NCBI GenBank assembly: GCA_001724265.1
Contig: MEDY01000237.1
Span: forward strand, 1-64,000
Length of the DNA: 64,000 nt
Reading direction: 5' to 3'
Source: Rhizaria sp. SCN 62-66
Lineage: Eukaryota
Positions 27,499 through 64,000 of the stretch are shown here, in pieces. Position 1 is the stretch's first letter; every line of letters starts with the position of its first letter. The notes under the pieces are model-generated. The model was not told the origin of the DNA and did no database searches. It saw only the letters and a list, made by a program, of their open reading frames with translations. The position numbers were made by a program, and so were the translations under genes.

Positions 27499-27902
27499 TG
27501 ATGACAAACACGCTGTGAAACTAGGTTTAGTCGATATGAAAGTACTAAAAAATATGTCAATATGGCCGTTCGCCGTGGATAAAAGTCGATGCGCGAACCC
27601 ATAGTTTATAAATACATATATTACGTGTTATAATGATGTTATTTTTAATATTAATAGCAGAGATCCTTGCTTCGTCTAGATACGCCTTGTTATGTGAAAC
27701 TGTGTGTCTCGGCTCCAGAGTCGCGCTCTTGTGCAACGCAATCCTCATAATTCGAATATTCAAGATCTCTCCAGAATGATCGTCATCAGCTCTGTTATGA
27801 TAGCTCTGAATTTGTCACATACTTTTCGCAATGGTTCTAAAATTATATCACGTATCACTGATTTCTTCATTGTTTATCTCTCCATTTTTCCGCAGTGGTG
27901 CG

Positions 27903-30900: not shown

Positions 30901-33900
30901 CCAATACCGCCACTCCATCAAACGTGTTTAGTGACCGGACTGGCCTCCAGGGGCGGCTTGACTTTCTCGCGCCTCGCGAAATCGTTCTCTTTAGTCTTCC
31001 TTCAAACATTCTCGACCACAGCAACGAAAGCAGCGACACTGCAACGAGTCGCGCGTCAGCGTCAGTGCTTACCCCAGTTGATCCACTTGCAATCCCTGCC
31101 GACTCTCCTCTTGCAGCCACTGCAACCGCGCTAGAGCTCGCGCTCTCGGCCCTCCCGCGCCCTGCAGTGACCGTTGGCACGGCTGCGTGTCTCGCCCGCA
31201 TGTACGCGCCCTCCTGGCCTTCAGTGACCATAAGCAGTCGTGACAGTGACCGTGGGAGTGACCATGAGCAAGCGCGTGGCCACGATCCCGAGCGCGCGCT
31301 GTGGGGAGTCACGGGCTCCCCGCGGGGGCTGCTGGCTGCGTGTGCGCGCGCGCAGGCAGTGGGGGCGTGGGGGGAACTGACGACGCTGTTGTCAGCAAAG
31401 ATTGCCAGGGTGAGAGCAGAAGAAGAAGAGTTAGAGTCAAGGCTCGCGTCAAGGCTCGTTAAATCTTCCTTCCAGTGCAAGGGAGGTAAGACCCGGGCTC
31501 CGCCAAAACTCATCGATATCGATCACTTCAAATACTCCGACGATTACGAACCAGATGCGAGCAGTGACAGTGCCATCGATGGCGACGAAGTCTTTAGTGA
31601 CGACGAAGACGCGGAAGCGAACCACGTCGCTGCTCTCGGCATGAACGGCAGAGGCAGTGACAGTGATGACGACAAACCTGGCTCTCAAACGCGTGGCCGC
31701 GGCACGTCTGCGTCGCTTTCGGAAGCGGCCTCGGCGTTCGCGCGCGGCTCTGTGCAGCACCCTGACTCGGCCCTGCTTCCTCCCTTTGCAGCCGCTGTGT
31801 TCAGCCCCAACTCGCGCCTGCTCACGGTTCCTCTGCACACTGGCAGAGCGACGAGCGCGGCGTCTACAGCCACAAACGCGGCAATTGCGACGCACGGTCA
31901 GCTTGCGAGCGCGAGTGCGCGCGTGCCTGTGGCAGTCGAGCTTCTGCCACCGGCCGCGACCGCTGCATTGTTTCCTGCACAAGCTACTGCTGCGAGCGCG
32001 ACAGAGGCAACGGAAGCAACGGATGTGTTGGTGAGGCTTGTCAAAGCACGGCTTGTCGCTGCTGTCACTGTTGCATCTGTTGCGAACAACATTGCTAACA
32101 CTATTGCGAACAACAATAGCAGTGACAGTAATACTAGCGCGAGTGCGAGAGTCAATGGTGGCGTCAATGAGGTCCGCTCGAACAGCGACGCGGTCGCGAC
32201 AGTTGTTGCATCTTTGCTATCCCAGCATCAGCACAGCCATGGCCACAAGTACGCCACGGCTCTGCACTATGCCGCGATGGCGATTGTGACTGCGCTGGCA
32301 TTGCCCGCCCCGGCCGCGCTTGCTGCGGCCGCTCTGGTGACGCATCTGTCGCTGCTCTCGGTCACTCCGCGGACCGCGACCACGGTGGCGCCCACCGGAG
32401 TCGTCACAGTCGCCGCGTCCGACAACCCCTTCGCGGTCTCCTGTGACTCAAACAACGGCAGCGGCGAGAACCGTAGAAAGGATAAGAGTGATAACGAACT
32501 GTGGGGTACAGCGTCAGTGCTGGGCGATGCATTTTTAGCCGCAGGCGCGCACATCCTAGTCTCGGGCACGCGTGCAACTGCAGCAGCTGCTGCTGAGACT
32601 GACAGCGCGGCTGCGATGACAGGGGCGGCGCTTGTGCAACGCATGGCGTGGCACGCGCCTGTGAAGCCGCGGCGTACTCAGTCGCAGAAGGCAGCGCAGT
32701 CTAGCTCGCTGTCGCGGCTACAGCCGCAATCGCAAGCGCAGATGGCCTCAGACACTGCAAAGCGTGACGAAAAGGCAATGGGTGCCACAGACGCGGAATC
32801 AGATGCTGATGTTTCTTCAAGCGATACGGACACTGATGATAACGAAGGCGGTGATAATGGCGCCTACAATGCTCGACACGCGCGATCACAGTCTCAGTCG
32901 CACGTTAACGCATCCTTTGGCTCGTTCCCCCTCGACGCAGACACAATCGTCAATCTATCCCTGCTCCCGTCCCCCTTGTGCCCGCCCGGTCACTCCGCGC
33001 TCGACCTGCTCTGCCGCCACGCCCGCTCCCCCGCCACCGCAGCGCTGCTCCGCGCCTGGCTGCTGCGCCCGCTGAGCGCACCCGCTCTGATCCGTGCCCG
33101 CCACGCCGCGGTCGCCGTCGCGCGCGCTGCCCTTGCGCCAGCGGCCACAGTTGCGGCGTTCTCCGCTGTCTCGGATCGCGCTTACAGTGGCCGCGTCGAC
33201 GTGCTGTGCAGCCGCTGCGAGTCGCACTCCAGCACCAGCGGAAGGGCGAATGCAAGCGCAATGTCGAGCTCAAGCGCGAGTGCGAGTGCCGATGTCGCCG
33301 CTGTGTGTTCACGGTCACTGGGCTGGCTGTGCGACCCCCTCAGCGACGCCACCGAGACCTTGCTCCCCCGCGGCCTGCCCGCCTCTGCCGCAGCGCGGGG
33401 CGCGGACCCCGTGGCCGCGGCGCTGGCGTACGCGCTCGGCGCGGGGCCCGCTGCGGACGCCCGGGGCGCGGGACCGCGCGAGGCGGAGCAGCGCGAGGCC
33501 GCGGTGTGGGCTGCGTGGGCGCGCAAGTGTCTCACAGTTACTAGGGGCAGCGCGCCCAAGCTCGGCAACGCGGAAGCGTCTGCAGTTGGTGATGGCAGTG
33601 TTTGTGCGCCGCCGACTGATGTCAATGCTCCCAGGACGCAGTCACAATCTCGGTGTCAGTCGCAGCTACCTCCGCTGTTGCCAGTCACTGAGAGTTTGCT
33701 ATCCCACTTCGCTCCGCTCGGCGCCGCCCCGTGGCTACGCCGCGTGCGCGCTTGTCTTCCCCTGCTGCCCGATATTGCATCGGCGCTCGCCGCGGCTGCC
33801 AGCGCGACGCCCGCGACATTCTCAGCTTTTATCGCATCCTCGACCTCGGGTGTAAGTACTTCAAACGTAAGTGCCTCTCCTGTAAGTGGCAACGCGTGGG

Positions 33901-43010: not shown

Positions 43011-44437
43011 TCAACAAGTGGTCTGCTGTAATGCGGGCTGGGTGCTGCCCTTGCCAAACTCTTTGCTGCCCTTGCGACGCAGCTTCAACTCCTGGCTCAT
43101 CTTGCGGCTTCTACGGTCGCGCTTGCTGTTGCTGTTGTTGCTCTCGTCGTCGTCGCCCTCACTGGCGTCGGCGCTGGCGCTGCCGCTCTCAGTCTCGCCC
43201 TCCCCCTCGCCCTCGTCGTCCGAGGCGCCCTCGTAAGCGTCGGCGCCGGCGTCGTGGAGGCTGTCGGATGTGATCGCGCGGTACAGGATCTTAAGCAGGA
43301 GCCCGAACCACCAGATGTGAAGCACGACGAGTACTGAGAGCAGTACGTTGCACGTCACGGCGCTGATGTAGAAGCGCGTGTATTCGGCCGTCCAGTCGCC
43401 CAGTAGGGCCTTCATGCGCGTGGCCAGCGTGAGCGAGCCGTCGGGGAAGGTCGTGGCCGCCGTGGTGGCGAGTGACGGCAGCGTGCCGCGGCCAATGACG
43501 GAAAAGGGGAAGAGGTACAGCCGGAAGTAGCTCCACAGCGACAGGGTAAGCGCGAACGAGAGCTCGACGATGAACCAGCCTGCACGGCCGTCCAGACGCA
43601 GATAATTACTCATTTTGAGCAGGTCGATGCCGATGTCGGAGATGTCGTGAATGAAAAGCACAACGGCACCGACCTTAAAGTCGTTGTTGGCGTAAGCAAG
43701 CGCGACGAGGCCGATAGTCGCTAAATGGTGGATATACATGGCGAAATAATCCTTGTGGGCGTGCGCGTCGCTGTTAAACCGGTGCGAGATGCAAGTAAAC
43801 ACCCAGACGGCCATTTGCGCGACAAAGAGCATCCGCAGCGACGTCTTAGGCGTGAAATCCTCCGGGTTGGGGAAGAAACACAACCAGGGCTTCGCGATCC
43901 AGGGCTCGCCCCAGAGCACGTAGGCCTCGGCGGTGGCCATGCTGGCGTGAATCACGAGCTGCCACGCCGCGCCGGTAAACTTGGCGCGTGCGGCGCGGCG
44001 GCGCAGCGGGTGGGAAAAGGGCGCGGCCGCGAGCCAGCGCGCTGAGACGACTCTGAACATGACGGTTTCGCAGAACCAGTGCGTCAGGCGCACGGCCGCC
44101 GCGGTGGCGCCCAGCATGAAGAGGAAGAAAAACAGGTCGTGTGGGTTTGTCATCGCCAGGGTGTACAGGATGTAGAGGGTCTCGGCAGCGAAAGTGCCTG
44201 TGAGCAGGAAATCACCTATAGAGAAGAAAATGCAGTCGAGGTGTGGTGTTCAGTGCGTGGAGGGGGAGTTAGAAATGAGTGATTCCGAGATGAAGATTGC
44301 CTTAAATGGGCGTGAAACCTATTTCTAGCTTACGATAGCCTGATGTATGAATGATACACTTGCTTTAAGCACGTACTGAGGGGGGTAATCTGACTTAGGG
44401 CGCGGGAAGTGCTCTTACGAGCGCCGCTACGCATCAT
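43011..44437 (-). CDS. Ceramide synthase (TLC/Lag1p family), paralog A; exons 44437-44377, 44215-43011
   Basis: KF…AWQ, Lag1p motif HKDYFAMYIHHLATIGL…GAVVLFIHDISD…K, W.YFRLY.FP and L.VLHIWWF, followed by an acidic tail. Phase-1 GTACGT intron after the MMRSG… exon; TGA stop. Confidence 0.88.
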
Positions 44438-45929
44438 CCTGTCTGTTGGAGCTTTAGGTAGTTAAACGCCGTCAAACGTTTGCAAAATGCCATGAAATCG
44501 AAATATGTTATCCGTGAGTCATATTTTTAATCTGTTATTGGTGTTATTTTTTGAATATACAAGTATCCATATAAATTTTCTGCGTCTTATGATGGGGCGA
44601 CAGACTATGGTTCGGGGGATTCGGGGTCTCACTAAATAAGCCTACCACACAATTTAAACGCACTAGAAATGCAGTTTAATAATACGATCACTAGAAACAC
44701 AAGTATTGGGATCTGTTAATTAAAGTTTAAAGCCGTTAATATGGGTGTCTACAGAGATATATGCGTGTTTAGGTCTGTGGCCGAATGACGAAGTGCAGTG
44801 ACGTTCGCGGAGTGGGTCTACCTCCAGTTAAAACTCAGCCTGTGGTCAGCATAACAAAACACCGTTTAACGACGCATTAATTCGTGTCATTAAAAATTTA
44901 TGGCATTAATTCAATAAACCCGCCTGTGGGCTGTTTGTAAAACGCATATAAATCTGGAGTCGAAAGTTTGCTATGCTAAAACAAGTCCTTTAAAGATGCG
45001 TTGGCGGTTACGAGCAACAGGTTGATGACGACTATTGACTGAAAGAAAGAAGGCATACGAAATCAAAAATCTTTGTATTGGCGATGAACACACGTTACTG
45101 TTGAATAAAATGATGTAGTTCTAGGAAAACACAATTACGATGCAACGCCTGTTATGGAGCTTCCTCTTTCTGGATATATTCGCGGTCGTGTCAGAATGTC
45201 TGACAAGCGACGACAACAAACACAACAAAAGACAGACAGCTGAAGACAAGGCATAAAACATATCGGAACATGTACAGTATGTACATGTCGTATCATTGAC
45301 ACATTCATGAACAAAAGAACGGCACACTCACAACGAAGTAAGCTGGTGGAGCTCTGGAGCGTGACGGAGCGAATGATACATTTTGAGAATAGGTTAAGAC
45401 ACAAAGTGAAAGCGAGCGAGAAAAGAACATTGCACTGAATACACAAAGTTAAGCCAAGACCCAATGGATAAAGAAAAAAATGACATGCACATTCCATTGA
45501 AGTGTTTGCTTGTTAAAATGATAAGCTTAAGAAAGGGAAACACAGATACAGACACAATGTGATACGATACAACGGCAGCGACAAGCGGCTCAAAAGAATA
45601 CGGAAATACGTAATACTGTCTAACACTGGCTGTAGTCAATGAACTTAGAGGAAACTCTTGGTCTGGTACTGGTATTAACGGTAGTGCAACAAAGACGATA
45701 TTGTTGGTGGTGTTGTTGAAGCTGCTGAAAATGTTTGTTGATATTGTGAAAAGAACAACGACAAGCAAGATGAGCTTATTGATTAATTGGGATTATTACT
45801 CGAGGATAAAACGCACAGAAATCAAAATGAAACAGAATGACGCATACATACACACACAAATAAGAACAAAACACGAAGAAAAAAAAAATCAAATCACGAG
45901 CCTAAAAGCATGCTTGAAGGGTGCCATTC

Positions 45930-47496
45930 TTAGAGAGCCTTCTTGGCAGTCTTGTTGATCTTGGAGCCAAGCTTACGACGGGTCGGCAAGCCGACAGACA
46001 CCATCTCATCTTCGCTCGACTCAGCAGCCTTGTCAGCCTTCGCATCCTTCGCATCCTTCGCATCCTTCGCAGGAGCGACGGACACCGAGCCGCTAGCCTT
46101 GCTCGCGCCCGCAGACGGCGCGACTTCCGGCTTGGCGTTAGCGATGGCCTCGGTCGCGGGGCCGGTCACCTTAGCCTCCCCCTCCTCCTCGTCGTCATCG
46201 TCGTCCTCGCGGTCGGAGTTGCCCTCGTACTCGTCGGCGCCGGCGCTATGGGGGTCGACAGAGCGCAGCATGCGAAGCAAGATGCGGAACAGCAGCGCGA
46301 ACCACCAGATGTGGAGGATGAAGAGCACGATCAAGAGCACATTGCACGTGACACACGAGAAGTAGTAGCGCATGTACGCGGGAGTCCACTCGCCGAGCAC
46401 GGAGACCATGCGTACCGCGAGGGGACGCGTGCCGTCGGGGAAAAGGTAATCTGTGGAGGTGAAAGCCGAGGCGAGTGAGCCCTGCGCAATGATGTAGACG
46501 GGGAACAGGTACAGACGGAAGTAAACCCACATAACCATGGTCATGGTATAAGCGAGCTCAACGATGAAGAGGCCGGGCTTGCCGTCCAAGCGTAAGTAGT
46601 TACTCATCTTGAGGGTATCAATGCCGATGTCGGAGACGTCGTGGGCGAAGAGCACAACGGTGCCAATCTTAAAGTTGTTGTCAGCATAGGCAAGGCCAAC
46701 AAGACCAATCGTGGCCAAGTGGTGAATGTACATGACGAAGTAATCCTTGTGAGCGTGGGCGTCCGAGTTGAAACGGTGGGAAAAACATGTGAAAATCCAA
46801 ATCGCCATTTGCGTCACGAAGAGCAGGCGCAGCGAAGTCTTGGGCGTGAAATCCTCCGGGTTCGGGTAGAAACAAAGCCAGGGCTTCGACAACCAGTCCT
46901 CGTCGTGCAACACGTAGATCTCAAACAGCGCCATGCTTGCGTGGATAACGAACTGCCAGGCAGTTCCGACGAACTTAGTACGCGCGCCGGCCTTCTTCAA
47001 AGGGTGGTTAAAGGGCGCATCACGGAGCACGTAGCCGGAGACAAAGTCATGGACAACGGTGTTGCAGAACCAGGTGGTGGCCTTGACGGCAAGGGCCGTC
47101 ACGGCGAACATGGCGATGAACACGGTGAAGTCGGTCGTGTTTGTGGTGTAAATAGTGTAGGCGATAGCCAGAGTCTCCAACAAGAACGTGGTCGTCAAAA
47201 TCGTATCACCTGTGGGGAGACAGAGAAAAGAGTGAAGTAAAGACGTTCGTTGAAGCGATACAATATTATAAGATGAGGGTGAGCGGAGTCGGGAGAGTTA
47301 GTCGAGGACAACATGAGAGCGGATGAGACAAGGCTGTGATGTGACTGCACGCGAGGCAGACATGAAGAGAAGCACAGAGGTGCACTGGAGCAGGCACTAC
47401 AAGGCACATAAAGCCCGTTTGAGTGTGTGTAAACGTACCTGTTTTAGAAAGCGTGTTCAAAGGACGCGGTTTGGCCACTTGGCCGCGACGCATCAT
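45930..47496 (-). CDS. Ceramide synthase (TLC/Lag1p family), paralog B; exons 47496-47439, 47209-45930
   Basis: Same Lag1p motifs and same intron position as paralog A. C-terminus VGLPTRRKLGSKINKTAKKAL ends in KKxx; TAA stop. Contains a 9-nt repeat x3 (DAK) at about 46042-46068. Confidence 0.9.
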
Positions 47497-49179
47497 CTCT
47501 GACCGGAGGCTGTGTTGAGGAGGGGTGAGAGGCAGCGATAACGAAAAAGCGAACAAAGAAGGGCTCAGAATGAGGCACAACAACAAATGCTACAAGTGAC
47601 GCCAGATATTGAAATAAGAATTCTTCAGAAACAGTTGTGCTTAATCTCTGAATTGCGATTGTTTATAAGCCAAAGATCCACCGATGCAAAAGCGCGGGTG
47701 CTGCAACGAAGCAGAAACCGGTACAAGCGGGAATACAAATGGTCGCTCAAATCAAGGGCTGACGAAACCATCGTAAAGATACAGCAAGCTACGTGATTCT
47801 TATCATGTTATAGCGAGAGCCTGCTCTAAACTGACGAAGATTGGCCTGTTTTCAAAGGCCTTTGAGCTAGTCGCCAATCCATGGACACCCTCTTCGACGA
47901 CGGGCATCCGGCTGAGCAAGGCTAATAGAAAACCACTCGTGGTCAGATTGTAACAGCGTTTTTATCAACACGTGAACAGTTAACAGTGCAAAACTTCTCC
48001 CTTTGAACTGTATCACTTACTATATTAAATGAATTTTGCTATATTATTTCAATCATTTGTGGTTATCCAACTTAAACTGGCTTGCGAAGTGAAACTTCAT
48101 GCCCCTCGCTGCTTTCATCATTCATTCGACGCACATAACAAATATATTTCATAGTAACCAAGTGTGATACGTAAATATTGCATCTACACAAGAGACAACC
48201 TAATGAATTATATGTTTTTGAGTGCGGATTGCAAATTCAAGTCATTATAAACGACTGCATGTCGATGTACCATAAGACATCAAGATCGTAACACAAGGCT
48301 CTATGCTGAAAAGAATGGATATAATGCGAATAATCACATGCGCTCGAGTGGTGGGATACATACAAATGTATTGGAAAACAAGTGAGCACCAGTGACGGCT
48401 TTGAAAGTGCTCAAAAACATGAAAAAGATATAAAATAGCGTTTGTGCTATCTCAAGAATCAATCTCACATTAATCAACGGCAACAACAAGCAAAGCAGGA
48501 CACGTCGTCATTGTAAATGGCAGCTTAAATATATAGTAGTAGTCGTGTGCGGTGATATAAAATATACAGCATTGTAACTGCAACATAATCTTCAAGCCAC
48601 AGCACCAACAACAAAGATGCGCGCTGCCGTGGTATAGCAAAAACACGCGGCAACACGTTCGCTGTTTGTTGAGCTTGTGATAAATAAGATCTACCTGAAT
48701 GACAAAATGTACATGTCAATAGACACTAGGCCATTGCGACCGTTGAAAATATAAAATGATGAGATGTGAAATCGAGGTTGGAATGATGAATGAGGGTGGT
48801 GAAACCATGAGGGATATACAACACACAACAATGCAACGTGGCTTACTGCGAATAACCTAAAGCAGTCTGTAAGGAACAGATTCTGGGATAGATACTTCAT
48901 AAGCAAGATATGACTGCGTAAATCGGGCAAAACTGTTCGGAATATCGCTCTGGCAAGGATGGATAAACGCTGATGATGACGATGTGATGTCGAAAAAGAA
49001 GGAGTAGAAATTGACAACAACACACCCAAAGAAAATGAACTTGAGAAGAAAACTAGAAAATATAAAACTTAAATATAGCTGTGTTGATGTTGGGTAGCCT
49101 CGTCAGCGTGTTTTTTGACCAAAAAAAAAAGGTAAATCAAATATACTGTTTCTGCGTCAGCCGAAGTGAGTCGGCAGCA

Positions 49180-50750
49180 TTAGACGGCCTTCTTGCTGGT
49201 CACACGGCCGCCGAGCTTGCGGCGCGTCGGCAGGCCAACACGCACATACTCGTCCCCATCATCAGCCGCCGCAGCGGCCGCAGCGGCAGCAGGGGCAGCA
49301 GTCGCCGTGTTGTCAGCGACTGCAATCACAGCGGCCTCCGCCTTGCCCTAGACCTGCGTCAGCGGGGGCGCGTCTATGACAGCGGCAGCAGCGGCGGCGG
49401 CAACGCGCTTGGGCCCCAGCGCGGGACTCGTGCCGCGGCTGCTGCCGACGGTGCTGGTCGAGTTGAGCGGCTCGTTGTCCTCGTGGTCCGAATCGCCCTC
49501 GTACTCGGCCGCGCCCGCGCTGTGCGGGTCCGTGCGCACCATGCGGATGAGGATGCGGAACAGCAGCGCAAACCACCAGATGTGCAGCACAAACAGCAGG
49601 ATGAGCAGCAGGTTGCAGATGACGCCCGAGACGTAGAAGCGCGTGTACGCGGGCGTCCAGTCGCCGAGCGCGGCGACCATGCGCGCGGCCATGGCGTGCG
49701 TGCCGTCGGGGAAGGTGAAGTCCATCGTGCGCTGCAGCGAGGGCAGCGAGCCCTGGCCGATAATGAAGAAGGGGAAGACGTAGAGGCGGAAGTAAACCCA
49801 CATAACCATGGTCATGGTGTAGGCGAGCTCGACTATGTACAGCCCAGGCTTGCCGTCGAGGTGCAAGTAGTTGCTCATCTTGAGCGTGTCGATGCCGATG
49901 TCCGAGATGTCGTGCACAAACAGCACGATCGCGCCGACCTTAAAGTTGTTGTCGGCGTACGCGAGACCGACGAGGCCGATGGTGGCCAGGTGGTGGATGT
50001 ACATGACGAAGTAATCCTTGTGCGCGTGCGCGTCCGAGTTGAAGCGGTGCGAGATGCAGGTGAAGATCCAGATCGCGATCTGCGTCACAAAGAGCAGGCG
50101 CAGCGACGTCTTGGGCACGAAGTCGACGGGGTTAGGGTAGAAGCACATCCAGGGCTTCGACAGCCAATCCTCGTCGTGGAGCACGTAGATCTCGAAGATG
50201 ACCATGCTGGCGTGGATAACGAACTGCCAGGCTGTGCCGACGAACTTGGTCCGCGCGGCGCGCTTCTTCAGGGGGTGGTTAAACGGAGCGTCGCGGAGAA
50301 CGTACCCAGAGAAGTAGTCGTGCATGACGGTGTTGCAGAACCAAGTGGTGGCCTTGACGGCGAGGGCCGTCACGCCGAACATGGCGAGGAAGTAGTAAAA
50401 GTCGAACTGGTTGGTGGTGAAGATGGTATAGGCGATGGCCATCGTCTCGAAGAAGAACGTCGTCGTCAGAATCGCGTCGCCTGCAAAAAAGAAGGCAAAT
50501 GGGGGAAAACGTGAGAGAGTGAGAACAAACGGCGAAGAAAGATGTGGGGGTATAGCAAGGCGAGAGAGTTTTAAACGGACGATACGAGTTTGAACACAGC
50601 TGTTGACGACGGGGCGAAAAGGCGGTTTACCGAGAGCAGAAATGCAGTGAACGCACGAGGAATGCACAGCGTAGTTAGAATGTGGGACGTACCAGTGCGC
50701 GACGGCTTGTAGACACCACGCTTGGGGCGGGGCGGGCCCTGGCGCATCAT
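49180..50750 (-). CDS. Ceramide synthase (TLC/Lag1p family), paralog C; exons 50750-50693, 50480-49180; in-frame TAG at 49348-49350
   Basis: TLC domain closely similar to paralog B. After the TAG the frame continues 55 codons to VGLPTRRKLGGRVTSKKAV-TAA, matching the paralog B C-terminus. Confidence 0.88.
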
Positions 50751-51454
50751 TGTATCAAGTGAGCTATTCGTTCGGGCAAAGAAGGCAAACGTTCGGAGGG
50801 ATAATTGTGGATGTCACTCGTTAGAAATGAGGCATTCTTGTATGTTTCAGATTAGGTATATGAAGCTTGTACGTAAAAACATAGACGAAATCCTCTAAGG
50901 AGTCGCGGTTAGATGCGCGGCGCCCCCGAAAGTTGCAACCTCGAATCGCGCCCACAGTTAAAGCCTCGCTTTGGCTACGAACATGATCCTGCTCTGAAAG
51001 CTATAAGCTGACACACTCTATAAAATAAAATGTGTAACCCCGCTCTTCGCGTATGCGTACAATGTGTTATGGTTCAGAACTGTCGTTTGTGCGAGTCAGC
51101 ATATCGCTCGTTCGAACGGCTGAGCAACCACCCGCGCGAGGGGCCGCGTCACTATCACCGAGCCAGTTCGGGAAGGACTGGGGAAGCGGGTTCGGCAGAG
51201 CTAACAACTTGAAAACAAGTCAAGTGCATGGTTACTGTTGCAAATTCATTGTCACTCGCATTTTCCTTGTCACGAGATAACATATCGACAAAACAAACAC
51301 TCTGTTGGAGCTTATTCTGTGTGCGATATATGCCTGTAAATCGTTCGATGTGACCAGAGCGCACGTGTAACAACTTGCTGTATATCCAAATAAATAGTGT
51401 TTATTGATAAATATGGATCAAATGAACGTGTTTTGCTTCTATGCGCAAGCTATC

Positions 51455-54400
51455 TTACATCCACTCGAGCGCGAAGTCGGCGACCTTGCCGCTCTTGCTC
51501 TCGTCCACCGGCGCCCCAGTCAGCATCGTCTCGCGCTGCGCCTGGCCCGCCGCGAGCGCGTCCTCGCTCAGCGCCGACGCCAGCCACGGCACGAGCTCCT
51601 TGAGCTGCGGCTTGACTTCCTCCGCGCTGGGTGGGTTGACGATAAACATGCCGGAGCCGATGGTGAAGCCAGAGCTATTGGTGTAGACCTCCGCCACAAC
51701 CGCGGTGTCCTTGGCTGCGGCAGCAGTCGCACGGCCTCCGCCGCGGCTGGGATCGGCAGCAGAGTCAAGCTCGAAGCCGCGCAGCGCGCGCACGGCAGTG
51801 GGACCCAGTAGCTTCGCCGCCGCACTCTCATCCAGCTCATCATCATTGACAGCACCAGCAGCACTGTGGGTGACACGGTTGTTCCTGTCGTTACTGTTGC
51901 TGTTCCTGTCGTTGTTCTGAGAGAAGCGGCTGTGCTGTCCGCTGTTGGCACCGCGGTCGAAGGCCCGCTTGGACGCCGCCAGCGCGCCGACCTGCTCGCC
52001 GCGCGCGCGCGCCGCGTCGCCGAGCCCGTTGAGGTTGTCGGCGGAGCGTAGCAGACGCTGGACCTCCTCGCTCGTGGCGACGCGCCGCGCGAGGTCCAGG
52101 AACAGGTCGCGGTGGCGGTGCCGCGGTAGCGCGTCAAAGGCGCGGATGAGCGTGCTCTCGTACACGCGCTCGTTGGCTGGCGTGCGGCGGTCGGACGACG
52201 CGGCCTGCGCGGCCTTGATCAGAGCGCGGGTTTCGTCGGCGGGTAGGAAAGACTTGATCTCCTCCTCGAACTCGTCTTCGTTCTTATCAACCTCACTTTT
52301 CGCGTTCTTAGAAGACGTTGCGCTGTGATTACCGTCAGCCGCAGCATTAGAAAGCGCGGCCGCGTTGTCGCCAGAGTACCACTCGCGTGCCCGCTGCGCC
52401 TCGGCCCTGCGCTGCGCGGCGACGCCAGAGCGCTCGTCGTCGAGCGCCTGCTGCGCGCGCCGCTCGTGGTCCGAGGCGCGGACGGCCTGCGCGCGCGCGA
52501 GCTCTGACTTGAGCAGCGCGCCGGGCCGCAGAATGGGATACCACACGGCGACGCACGCAGAGGGCCACTGCGTGAGCGTCGAGCGCAGGGAGGCGAGGAC
52601 CGAGGCGAATTCGTGCGCGCCCTCGTACGCGGGGTCAATCAGCACCAGCCCAGGCGGCGCGGCCGGGACGGTCTCCCACTCGCTCGCGGCCGCAGAACTA
52701 GAGTTGGCGGCAGTCTTCGTGTTCGCGAAGTTCTTGGTGTTGCTAGTGGGAGACTTGCGGGCCTTGCGCACGGTCAGTCCGCGGGGGTTGTCCTCCTGCA
52801 TTTCGCGGTACACGCGGGCCAGCCGCTGCAGCAGGTGCAGACCGTTCTTGCGCGCCACCGCAGTGCCGGAAGTCAAGCCGCCTACAACATAAAAGAAAGA
52901 TAAAGTCGAGTACACGTGAGATAACTAAGTAAAATAATTATAACAATGCGTGAAAAATTCGTTATTATGTTGCAATTTTAAGAAATAGTTGAACATATTT
53001 CGAAACATGTTGACAAATGTGCAGTTTCGTGTGATTTTTGCTACGTCACGTACCGGGCATATGGGGGCCGAGCAGGAAGCGCTGCAGGGCCTCGCGGCGC
53101 GCCGCGCGCACGGGGGCCGCGTCTGTCACGCCGCCAGGGGCGCTACGGGCGCCGTCGGCGTCGGCAGCCAGGGAGGCGAGCGCGCCGCTGTCTGTGCGCA
53201 GGCCGCGACCGGTGCTTGTGCTGCGAGTGTTACCGCCGTTGAACCAAGAGGACGCGATAGGGGCGGAAAGAGGATCGCGGGGCAACTCGTTCATATCACT
53301 GTTGCTCGCGATCGCGTTCTCGTTCACCGCGGTGACTGAGCTGACGCCGGCGCCCGCGATGCTCACGGTCACCTCGCCGTCGTTCTCGCCCTCACTGCCG
53401 CCGTCATTGCCGTTGCTGGCATCGCGCTGGTGGTGGAACTGCGTGTCGCTGCCCGCGCGCCCCGGTGCGAACCGCTGCGCGTGGTCAGTGAAGGTGTCCG
53501 CCAGACTGGGGTTAGCGTAATGCTCCAGCAGGCGCGCGAACTCGGTCGTGTGCAGCTCCGACAGCAGCACGCGGTCGCGCCCCGGCCGCGCCAGCGTCGT
53601 AAAGAGGAACGGCGACGACGGCACGCGCTGCAGCGGCGCCGTCACCGGCAGCGCCAGCGGCGCGAGAGACCGCGCGCGCGGGGGCAGCTCGGCAACGTGC
53701 TGCGCGAAGTCGGCGCGCAGCGACGCCAGCACGGCCGCGCGCGGGCGCTGCGGCAGAGTGAAGGGTGACGGCAGCGCATCGTCAGTGGGCTCCCCGGGCG
53801 CGCGCGTCGCAGCAGAAAAACCCGCGCGCAGGCGGGCGACGGCCGTGGCCGCGGGGTCGCCCTTGACGGCGGGCACCTGCGCGCCGGCCTCGGTCGCGGC
53901 GGCCGAGGCGGCGGCGGCCAGCGCGCGCGCAGCCGCAGCCAAACCCATCGCGCCGCCAGAGCCAGCGCCAGTGTCAGTGCCAGCGCCAGTGCCAGTGTTG
54001 CGAGAGGGGATGTTTGCAAGGCGGAGCGCGGCCGCGATGGACGCGTCGGCCGCGGTGAGCGGGTACGTGCCCTGCGCCAGCAGCTCGATCTTCTCGCCCA
54101 CAGTCACGCGTAGTGCGGACCGGCCCAGCGGCGGCAGCAGCGCCGCGGGCGCGCGCGCCGCCACGGCCTCGGCGTCTTTGGCCGCGACGGCCGCGGCAGC
54201 GGCGGCGGCCTTGCGCGCCGCGGGGGGGCCCGAGCGCGCAGCAGCCTGCGCGGCGGCCTGAGCGGCGGTGGCGGCGGCGGCGGCCGCGGAGGCCGAGTGA
54301 CGCGTGTCGTTGAGCGGGGCCGTCTCCAGCACCAACGCGCCCCCGCGCGCAGCGGCCGCGCTCGCGCTGAAGGCGGCGCTGCTGTCAGCGTTGGCCGCCG

Positions 54401-55903
54401 TGGCCGCAGTGGGATAGGGCGCGGGAGCGTAGGTCAGGGCCTCGTCCGCGAGGGTGTACCGCGCAGACGACACATACCGCAGGTCCGGGAACGCAGAAGG
54501 CTCATACGCGTCCTGGCCCTGCTGCTGGAGCTGCAAGGGGGAGAGGCCGGCGCTAGCGGCGGCGGACGCGGCGGCCGTGGCGGCGGTGTCGGCCAGCGTC
54601 GTGTGGCCCGTGATCTGCGCCTCCGCGTCGAGGCGCCCGTCAGCAGCGAACGGCAGCGTGGCCGCCAACCGCGCGCGCTCGGCCGCGACCAGGCGGGCCG
54701 CGGCGGCGCTGGCGCGGGCGCTCTCGCTCTCCGCGGCCGCGCTCGCCGCATCGCCACTGTCGTAGCCGTCGCTGTTTGCGTGACTGCTGTGGGCGCCAAG
54801 AGGGGAGAGCGAGGTGCGCAGGCGCGAGTGCGACTGGTACATGGGGAACTTGCGCTCCGCCGTGGCGCGGTTACTCAGCGCGGCCTCGGAGGCGGCGGCC
54901 CAGGGGTCCGCGGCCGCGGCAGACGCGCCGAACGCGAGCACGTTCCTTGGCGAACTCGCACTCGCAGGCGAAGGCGATGGCGATGGCTTGGCAGGAGCAC
55001 TGTCGCGGTCAAAGTTGCGGCCTAAACTGCTGTTTGCGTTCGAGCTCGAGCCGTATGGGGATGACTGTGAGCGCGATGCGTTCTTGTACTCATGATCACG
55101 AGTGTTCTTGTGGCTGCCGGCGTTGCCGAACTTCTTGGTGGCGGAGCCCGTCTGCGAGGGCGAGTGCGCGTGCGTGTGCGGCCGCTGCAACTGCTGGCGC
55201 TGCTGGGTCTTCTGCTTCTGCGCCAGCTGCTGCCAAACGTTACCCACGGTCGCCTGCCCCTGCTCACGGTCACTGTCACGCTCACGGCCGCTGTCGCGGT
55301 CACCGTCGCGGTCGCGGCCGGAGTTGTTGCGAGCGTTGTAGCTCATCTCACGCGAAGCCTCTGCATTCACTGCACTGGCCTCGCTGTTGGAGACAGGGTT
55401 ACTGTGAGCGTGAGTGAAGCGGGGCATCAGCGCCATCGAGCGGGCCCTGCGCGTGAGGCTGAGGCTCGCCGACTGCGACAACAGCGCAAGCCGCGACGGG
55501 GACGCGCGCATGGCCAGCCACTGCCCGCCCAACGGCCCACGCGCACCGAGAGTCGCGGCGGCGGCGGTTGTGGGGAAGGCAGAACGGGCGGTGACGGCGG
55601 CGGCGGCGGCGGGAGGGAAGATGCGCGCCGCGGCCGCCGAGGCGGACTCACGGCCACCGTGGCCCTGGCCCTGGCCCTGACCGTGGTTGTGGCCGTAGGT
55701 GTAGGGGCGGGACGCGGCCGAGGCGTAGCCGCGCTTGACGAGGGTGAAGTACGGCGACAGCTTCGTGCCGACCGCGGGCCTCTCAGCCGCAGCAGCATGA
55801 GCTGCAGCGGGGGCCGAAGCAGAAGCAGAAGCGGCAGAAGCAGAGATAGAGCTAGAGCCGGAGCTCGCGCTGTTGCCAGAGCTGCCACTGCCACTGCTAT
55901 TGC

Positions 55904-55943
<40 letters not shown>

Positions 55944-58900
55944 AGCAGAGGGCGGCTTGCGCCAGGAGTTGTCGATGCGCTCGTGGGACCGCAGAGAGGA
56001 CTCGTTGCGGGCGCGCTGCTCACGGTCACCGGAGCCGAAGCGCGGCTCACGGTCACCGAACCGCTGCTCACGGTCACTCGAGCGGGGGCGCTGTTCGCGG
56101 TCGCCGCGCATGTTGCCGCGGTTGGTGTGGGACGGAATCGAGTCGGCCTCGGCGTTGTGCGACGAAGGCCAGCTCGCCGCTGCAGGAGAACGGCGCTGAT
56201 GCTGCGGCTGCTCACGGTCACGAGGACCACGCGGCTCACGGTCGCCAAAGCTGCGTTGCTCACGGTCACCGCCACGGTCACCGCCACGGGGACTGAACGA
56301 GCGCTGCTCACGGTCACCCGAGCCGCGCTGCTGCTCACGGTCACTAGGACGGTCACGGGGACCACGCTGCTCACGGTCAACAAAGCCGCGCGTACCTTCA
56401 CGCGTGCTCTCACGCGTACCGTCGCGCGTACCGTCGCGCGCACCGTCGCGCGCATCGTCGCGCGCACTACGCTGCGGCTCTGAGCGGCCCTTGGGGCTCA
56501 TGCCGCCCCAGCGGCCGTGCTCGAACGGCAGCCCCGCCTTGGCGGCCGCGGCCGCGTCTCCTGCGCGCGCCTGCCCGCCCCGGTACTCCCGCTTCCCGAA
56601 CGCGGCGGAACCATCACTACTGCCGCTGTTGTTGCTGTTGTTGCTGTCAGTGGAGGGCGCTGAGGTGCCGAAGGGCGAGCGGAAGCGGTCCTCGCGCTCG
56701 GCGTCGCGCAGCGCCCCGCGTGCGCGGGCCTGTGTGCGCGCCGCGGCGGCCTGCAGCGGCGACAGACGGCGCGTGTCGACGCCAGCCAGCTCGACGTCGC
56801 CGTCTTCGTCATCGTTGGTATCGTGGGTATTGGGATCACGGCCGTAGCTGTTGTTGCCGCCAGCAGCGGCGGCGGCGGCAGCGGCGCGGCGCAGGGCGGT
56901 GTGGTAGCCCTTGTCCTTTGAGCTGATAAGCTCCTCGCCCAGCAGCGCGTCCAGCCGCGCCTGCCGCTGCCACGCGGGGCCGGAGCCCAAAGCGTCGTGG
57001 TCGAGATCGGCCAGCTCGAGCAGGCCCAGGTCGTCGTCGTCGCCGTCAGCAGTGTTGCCCTTGCCCTTGCCGCTCTTGCCAGCAGCACTGTGGTTGCTGA
57101 CAGGGGCACCGAACTCCCAGTCGCGGCCCGCGCCAGGCCCGGCGCCGTCGCCGCCGAACGCCCCCGCGCCGCCCGCGCCCGCGCCCACCGCCGCCGCCGC
57201 GGCCGCGGCCGCAGGGGAGAGAGGGAGCAGCGCGTCGATGACAGCCTGCGCGCGCGCGGCGTCGGGGCTCAGGCCCGCGGCCGCCGCCACGGAGGCCGCT
57301 ACGGCTGGGGTGAGGGCGCCTCGGTCCACGGCCCCGCCGCTGGTGAGGCCGGAGAGCGTGGAGACCGCGGGCGCGGGGGCGGGGAAAAAGGACGCGTGGC
57401 CTGCCGAGGCCGTAACCGTAACGGCGGAGGCCGAGGAAGGATACACGGGGACGGCGGCGGCCTCGCTCCGCAGCAGCAGCGCCGCCACAGCGCTCTCATC
57501 CTCCGCCCCCGCCCCCGCCCCGCTACTATGGGAACCCGTGGTGGAACTCGTGGTGGCGATGGCGGTGGCGCCGTAGAGCTCGTCCTCGAGGACGGCGACG
57601 GGCCCGCCTGCGGCCGCGGCGCCGCCCCGCGCCGCGGGCCCCGCCGCCCCCCACACTGCGCCCGCGGCGGCGGCGCGCAGCGAGTGCGGCACGGCGGCGA
57701 CGTGGCCGAACTGCCCGCCGTCGTTCTCGCGGCGCGCGGCGCGGCGCTCAAGCCCGCGCAGCTTGTACGGGTGCGCCGTGCGCCGGTCCGCGTCCGACAG
57801 CGGGAGCGCGTCGGGATCCGGCAGCTCGGCCAGAGTCGACAGCGCGGGGGCGCGGTTGGCCGCCGAGAGCAGCGCCAGGTAGGGCGCCAGGGAGGGCGGC
57901 AACGGGAGGTGGCGGTGCATGTAAGCCGCGAGGGGCGCAGTGGACGGGGAGTGCGCGTAGAGTAGGGAGGCGGGGGGCGCGGGCAGGTGGGACGCAAAGT
58001 CTGCGCCTGCACTCTGTGTGTTGTTGGCGCGACGGCTACCCTTGCCCTTGTCGTCTGCCGGCAGAGAGCTGGAGGAGTCAGAGGGGTCCGTGTTAGACTT
58101 CGAGCTACTCGAGTCAGCGCTCTGCGCCTGTGCGGCGGAGGAGGAGCTTGACGGCGCAGGCGCGATGCCGTGGAGCGAGAGCATCGAGCGGTGCACGGCA
58201 TCCACGTACGCCGGGTCCGGCGGCTGCGACAGCAACGGCGTCAGCGCCAGCGCGCGCGCCACCGCCGCCGCGCGGGCCTCGGCCGCAGTCAAGCCGGTCG
58301 AGGCGCTGGCGTGGGCGGTCGCATTGATGCTGCTGTTGCTGATGCTGTTAGAGAGATCGCTGCTGGCATGCCCGCCGCCGTCGCTACCGGCTGAGGACAC
58401 AGCCTCTAGCAGCGCGGCGCGCGCGTGAAGGCGCGGGACGAGCGGCGCGCCGGCGGCGGGCACGGCCCAGCCCTCGCGGTGCGGCGCGGCGTCGTAGAGG
58501 TCCGACGCGGGGCTGTGCAGCGGCAGGTAGAGCGCGGTGTGCGAGGCCAGGGGGAACGGCAGCGGGCCGTGGGGGGACGGGAAGGGAGACGAGCCGTCGC
58601 ACACGCGCCCCGCGCCCGCGCCGGAGCCAGCAGCAGCGCCAGAGCCAGAGTCAGCGGCGGCGGCGGCGGCAGAGGCGGAGCTTGGAGGGCTCGAGCGTGC
58701 AGTCGTGTTGGCGGCATTGGCGTTGACGATGGGGGGCACTGGGTTGAGGTACGACAGACGCGTGATGTGGGGGTTCTGCGCCGCGATGCGCGCGATATCG
58801 TACACGCGACCCACGCCCGCGCGGTACTCCTTGCGCTTGGCGGCAAAGTCTGACGTGAGGTCGTAAGCGCCGCCGGGGCCCGAGTGTGTGTCGATGAAAA

Positions 58901-59030
58901 GGACGCCGTGTCCGTGGCGGCGCAGCGACTGGCCGACCAGCAGCGCCAGCGTGGCGTGCTTAAGCACGTCGCCATGGTTGCCCGCGTGGAACAGGTGCCG
59001 GTATGACAGCGGCTGGCGGCGGAGGGCCAT
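51455..59030 (-). CDS. rlmJ: RlmJ-family (bacterial 23S rRNA A2030 N6-methyltransferase-like) protein, about 2467 aa; exons 59030-53054, 52881-51455
   Basis: RlmJ blocks occur in order: LSYRHLFHAGNHGDVLKH, IDTHSGPG..YDL…EY..GV, LAPYL, VPSSP…RPGRDRVLLSELH, GLVLIDPAYE…WP…VWYPI and GSGMFIVNPP…LVPWL. One GTACGT…TAG intron; TAA stop. Confidence 0.85.
56015..56465 (-). repeat. Coding tandem-like repeats (GDREQR/DREPR and RDGA/RDGT) inside the RlmJ-like insertion
   Basis: The plus-strand unit gctcacggtca(c) recurs many times between about 56015 and 56380, followed by 12-nt cgcgtaccgtcg-like units. Confidence 0.75.
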
Positions 59031-59542: not shown

Positions 59543-61881
59543 ATGAGTAGTCTTGGTCGCGCCGCACTCTCGGCCACTGCGCGCACTCTCGTTCCTCGCC
59601 ACCGCGCCGCGGCATCGGCGACGACAGCAGTCTCTCGCTCTTTCTCATCCTCGAGCAACAACAACGATGACAACGAGAACAGCAACAAGCCGTCCCCTGT
59701 CCCTGTCCCTGCCGCTCCCGCCAAGAACATCCCCGAGCCCGACGCGCTGCTGTTTGCCGCGCTGCGCCGCGCGGGCCTCAGTGCCGCGACCCTCCGCTCC
59801 ATCGGCGACCTCGCGCTCTCCGGCAAGAGCAAAATCACCCAAACCTCTCCCACTAACTCTGGCGCTGCTGCTGCTGCTCCGGGCGCTGTGTCGCTGCCAC
59901 CCGTGCTACAGAACCTCATCGCCGCGCTGGCCGCGGACCCGCAGCTGCCCCTGCGCGCGCCGCGTGACATTGATGCCGCGCTGGCCGACCCCGCCGTGCG
60001 AGCGACGCTGACGGAGGGCGAGCTGGAGACGATCCGGCGCGTGCTCACGCTTGCGCCCACGGTCACGGACCCCTCGGCCGCGCCACGCGCGCCGCTGGGC
60101 TCCTTCGGCAACAACAACAGCTTCAATGCGACCGCGAGTGTGAGTGCGAGTGCGGGTGGCGCGCTCGAAGCCCTGCCGACGCTGCCCGTCCCGCTCGACG
60201 CGCGCCTGCAGCGGGCGACGCGTGCCATCGACCAGGAGCTCTTCGCGAGCGTCATGACCACCGACCTCCCGCGCGCGCGCCGTCTGTTGGCCGCCAAGGC
60301 GGACCCCAACGCGTGGGACCCCGTGCTGCTGACGCCGCTGACAGTTGCGTTGCGCACGCCGAACAACCGCGCGCTGCTCGCGCTGCTGGCCGACGCGGGC
60401 GCGCTCGTCGGCCACCTGCTGCCCGCGACCAACTTCACGGAGGCGCGCGACGCGGCGGCCGCGGCTGCAGCGGTCTCGGACGTCAAGGGGCGGAACCCGG
60501 GGGTGCTGAATGGCGCCGAGATCGGCCAGATGGGCGCGATTCCCAACGGGAATAGCATCGTCGCGCATCTCACCTCCGACTCTTCTTTGAACACTGGCAA
60601 CACAGCAAGCACTGCAAGCGGCACCAACGGCAGCACCGGCAGCAAGTGGCGCGGACTCGCGGCCCCCGTGCAGCTGGCGCCGATCCACATCGCGGCGACG
60701 CTGGGCGACGCCGACAACCTGGCCTTTCTGCTCGAGCGCGGCGCGCCCGTGTCCTCGCGGACCTCGCTCGGCGACACGGCACTCCACCTGGCCGCCGCGG
60801 CCGCCAAGCCCGCCGCAGTGGAGCTGCTGCTGCGGCAGGGCGCCGAGCCCAACGCGCGCTCGCCCCAGGGCACCACCGCGCTGCACGAGGCGCTTCGCGC
60901 AGCGCCGTCGCCGCAGTCGCGTATGGCCGTCGACCAGCTGCTGTTTGCGCGGGCCAACCCCGAGGCAATGGCGGCCGACACGCTCGACTCGCCGCTCACG
61001 CTCGCGGCGCGCGTCGGCGACCCCGTCACCATCAAGTTCCTCCTGGCCTACGGCGCTGACCCCAGCGCGATGGCGGCCAGCGGAGCCGTGCCCGTCGCGG
61101 CCGCCATCGAGGCCGGCAACGGGCCCGCGGGCCGCGCGCTCGCCGCCGCGGGCGCACGCGTCGGGCTCGGCTCGGACCGCCGCTACGGCAACCCCAGCAG
61201 CGGCCACGGCCACGGCGGGGTGTCGGGCGTGGAGGCTGCGGCGAGCGCGGCGGGCGGCAGCATGCTGCACTTGGCGGCGCGTAAGAACAAGGCGGGCGCG
61301 GTGGCGTGGCTGGTCCAGGCCATTACGGCCGAGGAGACGGCGCCCGCGAACCCGCGCTTCCCGCAGGCCAGTCAAAACAGCCACAACAACCACAACGACC
61401 TTGGCGGTAACGACGGTTCGAGCGCCAGCGCCAGCGTTAGGGCGAGTGCGAATGCGGGTGCGGCCAAGGAGGGCGCGCGCCGGCCGTCTGTGGACCAGCC
61501 CGACTCGGCGGGCGCGACGCCGCTGCTGGCCGCGGCCCGCGTCGGCGCGCTCGAGGCTCTGAGCGCGCTGCTCTCTGTCGGCGCGAGCCCCGACCTGGCG
61601 TGCCACCAGGGCCACACGCCGCTGCTCGCCGCCGCGCTGCGCGGGGACGCGCGGATGACCACGACGCTGCTGCAGTGGCGCGCGGCGGCCGACCTGCCCT
61701 GCGCGGGACTGCTCGGGGTCACACCGCTCATGATGGCCGCGCGCGTCGGCAGCGCTGAGTGCGTGGCCGCGCTGCTCCAGGCCGGGGCCAGTGCCGCGCG
61801 GGCCGATGTTAAGGGCCGCGATGCGCTGGGGTGGGCGCGGGACGGCGCCGAGGCCGCGGGGGCAGAGATCGCGGTCGCCGG

Positions 61882-61918
<37 letters not shown>

Positions 61919-64000
61919 GGCGGCAGCGGCAGCGGCAGCAGCAAGACTAGCAATGGGACTGTTGTGACGAGCAGTGGCAAGGGCAAGGGCGCAAACGGCT
62001 GGGACGAGATTGTGGCGCTGCTTGTGGCCGCTGAGGCGAAGTAGCGCGGTAGCGGCGGTGGTACTAGCAACCGCAGTTCCGGTGGCAACAATGGCGGCGG
62101 GTCGAATAACTCTGGTGGCAATGGCAGTGGACTCGCGGCAGCAACATAGGCAAACCGGCATACCTTTGAATCTCTTTTTAACAACGCCAACAACAATGGC
62201 AACAACAAATCAGACAAGAAGAACGCTAAGACGAGCTCGAACACCGACACGACCCGTCATAGTTCAAGTCAAAACACGTCCACTGTGAAAAGCTCACACA
62301 GCAGCACCGAGACCAGCCCCAGCCACGACCGCAACATCGGCAGTAGTCCCCGCCGCCGCAATGTTAGCGCCGCCAGCCGCAACCGCAACAGCAGCAGCGG
62401 CGGCAGCAGCGGTGGCGGCAGCAGCATCGCCGTCGACCGTGCGGCCGCCGCCGCCGCCGCCGCGGCCCGCGCAGCCGGGGACCCTTCGGGCGGCGCGCGG
62501 GCGGTGCAGACGGCGGCGGCGGTCGAGTCCGCGCAGCGGCGCCTGCTGCTCGACAGCGCCATGGTCCCGGGGCTCAGTGTGGTGGCGCTGCCGACCGCGG
62601 CCGAGGCGGCGGCGGCGAGTGTGGCTCGCGAGTGGGAGCAGGAGGAAGACGACGAGGCCGAGGTCGAGCACGGGTTTCTGCGGAACCTGCACAGCGGCGG
62701 TGTAAGTAAGCTGAGCTTGAATAGCGGCGAAGACGATATCGGTCCTGTCGCTGTGCGGGGCGCCAAGAGTGTGGCTGCCGTCGTCACCGACAGTGGCGAG
62801 GAGCTCGACCCCTTCGTCAATAACAGTGACATCGTCGATGTCTTGGACACCAACACTGTTGACCTTGACAGCGACGTTGAGCGCGCGTTTGGGGCGAGCA
62901 ACAACAAAAACAAGCCTAAGTCAACGTCAAAGACTGCTCACATCGCTCCTGCCGTGTACACCGACGTTGAGGGCAACGAAACCGTCGTCAGCGCCGCTGC
63001 TAGCCGCGGCCCGCTGTCCGACGCGGAGGCGGAAGCCGAGGCCGAGGCCGTGTTGCAGCGCCTCATTGCCGACTCCGACTCCGAGTCAGCCGCCGGCCTG
63101 CGCGAGCGGCCGCGCCCGTCGTCGGCGCGCTCGCCGCCGCAGCGCGACCCGCAGTACGAGGAGCCGCTGCAGCGCAGCGTCGAGGGGCTGGCCGTGCGCC
63201 GCGGCGGCGTTCACCCCGTCACGGGACTGCCACTGGCTGCCGCCACCGCCGCCGTGTACCTCGACAGCGGTAGCGAAGGGGTCGAGTTCGGCCCTCTTGG
63301 CAGCGACAGCGACGGGCGGCTATTCATCAGCCGCGGTCACGGTTACGGTGGCGGCGACGACGCTGGGTCTGGCATGGAGTTCGACACCGCGAGCGGCAGC
63401 GGCAGCGACGGGGACTTCCGTGTCACTCACGGCCGTCGCAGCCTCGGCCGTCGCCGCGACGGCGGCGACAGCGACGGCGTCGACAGCGACGGGTACGACT
63501 CCGAGGGCCGCAAAGTAATCCGCGTGGTCAACGATGCCGGCGAGGTCGAGGTGTACGTGTTTTCTGACTCGGACGGCGAGCCGCGCTCACTCGACGAGGC
63601 CATGGAGGCGGTCTACAGGGCCACCGACGCCGACGCTGATGCCGCGGACAGCGACGGGCCGGACGCCGCGCTCGTCGCGCTTGCCAACGCCACCGATGTC
63701 GACGCGGACCACTTCTTCTCCGCGCACGGGCCCAGCGACGCGGCCGGCCGGGCGGACCCGTTTGGGTACTTCTCCAGCCAGAGCGAGAGCGAGGGCGCCG
63801 TTCTTCTGCACCGCGGCGGCGGCAGCAACAACGGCAACGGCGGCCGCAAGCTGCTGCCGCCGGTGCCCCCGCTGGGCGGCGGCTCCGGCGCGGCGCTGCA
63901 CGGCCACGGGCACGGGTACGCAACACACGGGTCGCTCGCATACGGGGACTACCTGCCGGGCGTTGTGCGTGACGCCTGTGCCCCCGGCGCGGTGCTCAGC
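59543..64000 (+). CDS. Ankyrin-repeat protein with putative mitochondrial presequence; reads through TAGs at 62042-62044 and 62147-62149 and stays open to the window end (3' partial)
   Basis: N-terminus MSSLGRAALSATARTLVPRHR…SRSFSS is R/S/A-rich and acid-free. Ankyrin motifs include APIHIAA, GDTALHLAA, GTTALHEA, SPLTLAA, GATPLLAAA, GHTPLLAAA and GVTPLMMAA. The same frame has no TAA or TGA from 59543 to 64000. Confidence 0.75.

Follow-up and report, generated by a model that had tools for sequence, protein, structure and literature searches.

We found that UAG is almost certainly decoded throughout the genome represented by a 34.9-Mb eukaryotic assembly. The explanation that we favor, and consider probable, is a variant nuclear code: UAG would serve as a rare sense codon, most likely for glutamate, with UAA and UGA as the stops. 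The window analyzed here covers the first 64 kb of this assembly's contig C237; its genes are GC-rich, its spacers AT-rich, and its introns short and AT-rich. Near its end, a single forward-strand frame runs from ATG 59543 through TAG 62042 and TAG 62147 to TGA 64616 on the contig, 1691 codons in total. Pfam matches and the translation give its N-terminal 833 codons (59543–62041) as a leader followed by ankyrin repeats split by low-complexity inserts (Ank_2, E 7.9e-33); the leader, rich in Arg, Ser, and Ala, resembles a mitochondrial presequence by eye. The first TAG (62042–62044, codon 834), a putative sense codon, stands directly after the last ankyrin-like helix. A 34-codon Gly/Ser/Asn linker (62045–62146), coding-like and not intron-like (GC 0.62, T 0.16), leads to the second TAG (62147–62149, codon 869), likewise a candidate sense codon. 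From 62150, an acidic, low-complexity C-terminal part fills the window to 64000 and runs past it to TGA 64616–64618. This part has no Pfam family and an Atlas search of it gave no usable match; judging from its Atlas model (pLDDT 0.36), it is probably disordered.

An earlier note on this DNA had described two TAGs 35 codons apart, more than 600 open codons behind them, no in-frame TAA or TGA up to 64000, and a first in-frame ATG at about 62561. All of this held: the spacing is 35 codons, the two TAGs are the only stops of the frame in the window, 617 open codons follow the second TAG within the window (822 up to the TGA on the contig), and the first in-frame ATG 3′ of both TAGs is at 62561. 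The true stop that was to be sought beyond the window is the TGA at 64616, with AT-rich DNA (GC 32–41%) downstream. The note's remark that no AT-rich spacer lies here stood only in part. GC falls to 45–49% at 62101–62300, but this stretch is A-rich (T 12–21%) and strongly coding, unlike the true spacers and introns, which are T-rich (T 31–51%). The dip is due to Asn, Lys, Ser, and Thr codons, and in-frame coding periodicity is the highest of the whole locus there (+0.65 per codon, against −0.08 and −0.10 in the spacers). A Markov coding model, for which 121 long frames served as training set, gave in-frame coding scores to the DNA between the TAGs and to every stretch behind them (+0.12 to +0.65 per codon) and negative scores to the spacers on either side.

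A contig of run X4, which belongs to a study other than that of the possible source run, spans both TAGs with no differing letter, which rules out assembly errors. We rejected an intron that would take out both TAGs, an option that the earlier note had itself raised. A GT..AG pair at 62041–62149 encloses 109 nt whose removal would shift the frame; the stretch has GC 0.61 and T 0.17 and no pyrimidine-rich acceptor downstream, whereas nine introns of this genome have T 0.33–0.51 and eight of the nine start with GTA(C/T)G. Contigs of four runs show no joint at the TAG site; runs with small shares were left out of the evidence. No RNA contig crosses the TAGs; pieces from the polyA run lie on both sides, polyA cover at the TAGs is 0.25–0.5, and the gap there is uninformative in a library that may contain DNA.

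We then took a census of stops in 684 kb of contiguous sequence (C237, C11, C64, C5, C63, and C44), listing every stop preceded by at least 60 coding-like codons: 68 TAA, 59 TGA, and 23 TAG. At a first threshold of 0.1, in-frame coding-like sequence lay behind 15 of the 23 TAGs but behind only 1 of 68 TAAs and none of 59 TGAs. We then set aside 13 TAA, 13 TGA, and 4 TAG that had a splice-donor motif within 45 nt upstream. For the remaining stops, with the downstream threshold at 0.09, coding-like sequence continued behind 18 of 19 TAGs, 6 of 55 TAAs, and 1 of 46 TGAs (7 of 101 for TAA and TGA together; Fisher P = 8e-15). In a two-sided test over 899 kb, 27 TAGs, no TAA, and no TGA had coding sequence both before and after them; six of these TAGs had been preselected, either in loci fetched for their TAG or as the present finding, and additional TAGs in the flanks were tolerated for TAG sites only. 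As gene ends, the strict census gave 49 TAA and 45 TGA, with TAG at 1 of 95 ends and none clear by eye. Among stops free of a donor motif, a looser census gave 54 TAA and 55 TGA ends, and non-coding-like sequence followed 5 of 28 TAGs (at most 5 of 114 ends); two of these five continue to a TAA 3 and 26 codons on, and three resemble, by eye, intron or wrong-frame calls.

As a sense codon, UAG is rare: we detected 25 sites for a total of at least 149,083 codons, or ∼0.2 per 1000, below the rarest ordinary codon (ATA, 0.77 per 1000). In total, 40 distinct in-frame TAG sites were found in many unrelated genes, 11 of them inside Pfam matches. The base 3′ of these 40 TAGs is A in 14, G in 11, C in 10, and T in 5, whereas true TAA and TGA stops of the 684-kb sample (n = 94) show a strong purine bias, with G after 63 and A after 23; the avoidance of G after sense TAGs is not significant (P = 0.10). 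Readthrough confined to particular genes does not match this pattern, as no common base follows TAG and UAG is nearly absent as a terminator. These counts support reassignment over local readthrough, and it is plausible that two successive leaky stops would in any case leave too little full-length product. The earlier note's reading of the locus as one protein with two reassigned UAGs is thus supported by the stop census, as it is by a TAG in the eRF1 gene, a TLC-domain paralogue, and a CUA tRNA, described below.

The 11 TAGs inside Pfam matches fall in eRF1, five kinases (one of them within an insert), three ankyrin proteins, a USP5-like protease, and a ubiquitin-like domain, and the TAAs and TGAs that we fetched inside Pfam matches were all intronic; the fetched set did not include the kinesin and Ras matches whose stops are TAA or TGA alone, nor the matches with mixed stops in SNF2 and UCH (five) and in kinases (two). 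Among 142 kinase matches, nine held TAG only (five in frame, four as splice acceptors), and the sole TAA-only match is an intron. In-frame TAGs occur in 3 of 74 ankyrin, 1 of 19 UCH, and 1 of 5 ubiquitin matches, as well as in the eRF1 match. TAGs at match edges that proved to be splice acceptors or intronic had been removed before counting (L141, L142, L146, the first site of L147, L148, L149, L150, L151, L165, L166, L177, L178, and L179), and what looked like an in-frame stop in one dynein heavy chain is an in-frame intron. No sense TAG was seen in three dynein genes, and no stop at all inside any ABC (19), AAA (21), EF-hand (48), or WD40 (149) match; in most housekeeping families searched, UAG is missing or intronic only.

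Several genes illustrate the pattern. In the window, a TLC-domain gene on the reverse strand (49180–49350) has an in-frame TAG at 49348–49350 and then a 55-codon tail to TAA 49180–49182; the tail ends in a motif that it has in common with a TAG-free tandem paralogue at 45930–47297. The two belong to three tandem TLC-domain paralogues at 43011–50754 (−), one of which carries the in-frame TAG. Also on the reverse strand, the gene from ATG 6016 to TGA 2255 has a TAG at 5243–5245 with coding sequence on both sides, in the census and the two-sided test alike. One coding-like frame on contig C64 (L103:3–623, −) contains three TAGs within 36 codons. A CAP-G-like gene on the same contig (L089:566–1090, −) is split at its TAG in public protein records, with an upstream piece of 73 residues and a separate downstream piece (P0225 and P0223), and the orthologue of a relative (P0224) is whole. 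One kinase TAG was confirmed by a second public contig. At the TAG site of the USP5-like protease, USP5 structures have a gap or a variable residue. The ubiquitin-like domain lies in an AT-richer, foreign-looking element (L162:1–2085, contig C681) with a tandem repeat and a Peptidase_S74 chaperone domain. This element is possibly mobile or virus-derived, and a repeat related to its own is also present in L126. In a 20-kb locus of a relative (L183), one of eight long frames ends in TAG, a sample too small to call its code.

The sole eRF1 gene found (contig C63) has its TAG (L042:1594–1596, −) in frame in the N-domain, at human position 107; the other match of the eRF1 search is Pelota-like. Among 116 homologues, this column holds Glu in 105, Asp in 10, Val in 1, and Gln in none. 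The closest relative, P0004, has the Val; T58K and L126M are common to both proteins, and T32S and G57S are absent from P0004. Changes at places otherwise nearly fixed among the 116 homologues include T32S, G57S, T58K, L124M, L126M, and K130Q; L124M belongs to a ciliate UGA-only motif. E55, the NIKS motif, Y125, N129, and F131 are retained. T32 touches the G of UAG (PMC5304391), and T32A is lethal in yeast (PMC4381064). However, E55, Y125, and N129 are residues tied to UAG recognition, and the T32S change had little effect on human eRF1 at any of the three stops in vitro (both PMC3632111); because these residues are kept and T32S is near-neutral, the substitutions are no proof that UAG recognition has been lost.

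To read UAG, the cell has a candidate tRNA. A pattern search with 23 candidates, followed by ARAGORN, gave one gene with a CUA anticodon (C84:76008–76080), and a second pattern for CUA and UUA anticodons with longer spacing gave 11 rows with no other such tRNA by eye; the Rfam search scored 63 of 506 tRNA candidates, so that the number of CUA genes is at least one. This gene scores 58 bits on RF00005, has a T-run directly after it, and is flanked by genes in agreement with the organism's coding model, on a contig whose composition is like that of the genome (r 0.95). ARAGORN labels it Pyl, a label that follows from the CUA anticodon alone; its best Rfam match is the generic tRNA family. With the organism's own tRNA-Glu(CUC), it shares 47 of 73 letters in an ungapped comparison, against 33 and 26 with tRNA-Gln. 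Base pairs 1–5 are identical to both tRNA-Glu, and the acceptor stem is Glu-type, unlike the G1-C72/G2-C71 of the genome's tRNA-Gln. It also has U11-A24, U13-G22, A46, and no base 47, which are elements of E. coli tRNA-Glu (PMC9976931); U11-A24, U13-G22, and the missing base 47 are present in the organism's tRNA-Gln(CUG) as well. With 73 nt, a 4-nt variable loop, and no long variable arm, a Leu-type tRNA is ruled out. Engineered human tRNA-Glu with a CUA anticodon inserted ∼95% Glu, and the E. coli counterpart inserted 59% Glu and 17% Gln (both PMC12204705). Among other tRNA calls, those of ARAGORN's intron mode were false, and a tRNA-Tyr-like gene with a short intron (L019:2709–2793, −) received no ARAGORN assignment.

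With fair confidence, we take UAG to specify mainly glutamate. The tRNA body is the strongest evidence on the residue and favors Glu; the alignments do not separate Glu from Gln. Pfam scores over nine sites, summed by hand with 8 of the 20 residues tried, were 632.4 bits for E, 630.8 for Q, 628.3 for K, 624.2 for D, and 623.7 for S, followed by Y (below 622.4), L (below 618.3), and W (below 617.4). Leu, at least 14 bits below Glu and without a Leu-type tRNA, is excluded; the margin of Glu over Gln is 1.6 bits. TAG stands mostly at tolerant positions. In CAP-G, the closest orthologue has Glu in a column that is variable beyond that orthologue, and at two kinase sites the paralogues have T/I/V and D/A.

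It is possible, though unlikely, that UAG instead means Gln or a Glu/Gln mixture, with the Glu-derived tRNA charged partly or wholly by glutaminyl-tRNA synthetase. Besides the narrow Pfam margin, this would agree with one kinase site, where Gln is the residue of the closest orthologue and the top 49 homologues have Q 16, K 14, and E 3 in the column, and with the foreign element, where Gln stands opposite the TAGs both in the ubiquitins of the cell itself and in a twin repeat. The residues flanking the 40 TAGs are intermediate between the Glu and the Gln pattern; they differ from those at Gln sites (P = 6e-5) and at Glu sites (P = 0.03) and not from those of all codons (P = 0.71); the Glu-like share of the contexts is 0.66 (95% interval 0.34–0.92), with 7 of the 40 sites clearly Gln-like. 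A pure-Gln context model nevertheless fits worse than a pure-Glu model (−9.0 vs. −4.1 log units), Gln is absent from the eRF1 column, and the acceptor stem is of the Glu type. Moreover, CAG→TAG is a transition, so some Gln-derived sites should appear at tolerant positions even with Glu as the meaning of UAG.

Some termination at UAG may accompany its decoding. In the stronger form of this idea, UAG is ambiguous: eRF1 terminates part-time and the CUA tRNA suppresses part-time, and the locus yields both an 833-residue ankyrin form and the long form. The rarity of UAG relative to every sense codon, its scarcity in housekeeping families, the single CUA tRNA gene found, the eRF1 residues linked to UAG recognition, and the position of the first TAG at the end of the ankyrin region would all suit such a state. 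We nonetheless hold it to be improbable, with no clear UAG-ended gene among ∼95 gene ends (at most five in the looser census), three TAGs within 36 codons of one gene, and no significant avoidance of G after sense TAGs when G follows 63 of 94 true stops. Rather doubtful is a further version, in which the code change is at an ambiguous, self-tuned stage: tRNA-Glu(CUA) and a UAG-competent eRF1 would contest UAG, eRF1 would limit its own synthesis because its mRNA carries UAG in the stop-recognition domain, and this loop would set the ratio of isoforms. Bacterial RF2 is regulated by an in-frame stop. If the self-tuned reading were true, the eRF1 UAG would be a eukaryotic counterpart of that stop, and genes like the ankyrin locus would produce short and long isoforms.

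Very improbable is the standard code, with two genes (833 and 685 codons), a decayed 3′ half, an intron, or a sequencing error at the locus: the GC dip at 62101–62300, the in-frame ATG at 62561, the GT..AG pair, the Atlas's separate record for the downstream frame, and the lack of an RNA contig bridging the TAGs could be read in its favor, but the intron fails on composition, frame, and joints, error is rejected by the X4 contig and by the second contig with the kinase TAG, the sole eRF1 found would be cut at residue 106, and the census and the CUA tRNA would go unexplained.

We return to UAG as a rare codon for glutamate and to how it could have arisen. UAG would have become rare first, and a copy of tRNA-Glu would then have acquired a CUA anticodon. 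This single tRNA-Glu-derived gene would be expressed, charged by glutamyl-tRNA synthetase, and decode UAG; we infer both the residue inserted and the efficiency of decoding against eRF1. New UAGs would have come from GAG and, at tolerant places, from CAG, and UAG would no longer be used to end genes. At the locus in the window, the ribosome would pass both TAGs and make a 1691-residue protein of ankyrin repeats and a long, acidic, disordered tail.

From sequence comparisons, the organism is probably a rhizarian. The best named match of one kinase is from Plasmodiophora brassicae (58%), and the ubiquitins have one extra residue before the usual start, with no junction assembled; this is in line with ubiquitin junction insertions described for Rhizaria (PMC12930898 and PMC13746701). 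The runs that contain the locus are labeled bioreactor, wastewater, and activated-sludge metagenomes. On contig C706, an 18S rRNA gene of high divergence (L159:1501–5945) has four group I intron matches, and one stretch of it encodes a His-Me finger homing endonuclease; the composition of this contig is unlike that of the genome (r −0.34), and it may come from another organism. Elsewhere in the window, an RlmJ (RsmJ) methyltransferase-like gene (51455–59030, −) has two long exons and an intron near 52880–53055; its profile positions 4–45 lie in a 1994-codon frame and 120–167 in the next frame, and low-complexity inserts stretch the domain ∼10-fold. A MutS homologue (27831–36545, +) has 2904 codons, and long inserts spread out its domains I, III, and V.

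Known codes in which UAG alone is reassigned give it to Leu or Gln (PMC5304391 and PMC11687900), and known codes with UAG as Glu recode UAA too (PMC10553269 and PMC12153298). The rhizarian exLh (UAG as Leu) and Iotanema spirale (UAG as Gln) likewise keep UAA and UGA as stops (Panek et al. 2017, PMC5304391). The present organism is probably rhizarian as well, but exLh has 384 UAGs in 71 genes (PMC5304391) against ∼0.2 per 1000 codons here, and its Leu is excluded here by a tRNA without a long variable arm, among other evidence. The exLh eRF1 change L69A is absent, and T32, which is Gly in Iotanema (PMC5304391), is Ser here. Phyllopharyngean ciliates made the same UAG-only change with a CUA tRNA from an existing isoacceptor (McGowan et al. 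2024, PMC11687900), although UAG there means Leu or Gln and its use is described as widespread (PMC11687900). Oligohymenophorea sp. PL0344 (UAG as Glu, UAA as Lys) also has CUA tRNAs derived from tRNA-Glu (McGowan et al. 2023, PMC10553269), with 69–93% identity to it compared with 64% here; in PL0344, UAA is sense, UGA is the sole stop, and the CUA tRNA genes number ten (PMC10553269), whereas here UAA is a main stop and one such gene was found. Peritrich ciliates (PMC11687900) and Blastocrithidia (PMC12153298) have UAG as Glu in common with our organism but read UAA as Glu too, and here we saw no tRNA with a UUA anticodon. A literature search, with subscription papers and supplements mostly outside its scope, gave no report of UAG as Glu with UAA as a stop, and the main texts of two 2026 papers on Rhizaria (PMC12930898 and PMC13746701) do not contain "UAG." Glutamate at UAG with UAA and UGA as stops is thus probably a new code variant.

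If this is true, standard-code annotation cuts these genes, as the records of CAP-G illustrate. Codes used so rarely would escape methods that rely on alignment votes, and more may therefore be hidden in protist assemblies. UAG is here nearly unused both as a stop and as a sense codon, a state on which codon-capture and ambiguous-intermediate models differ in their predictions, so both could be tested in this organism. The finding would add a further nuclear code outside the ciliates and, if the organism is indeed rhizarian, a second and different reassignment of UAG within Rhizaria.
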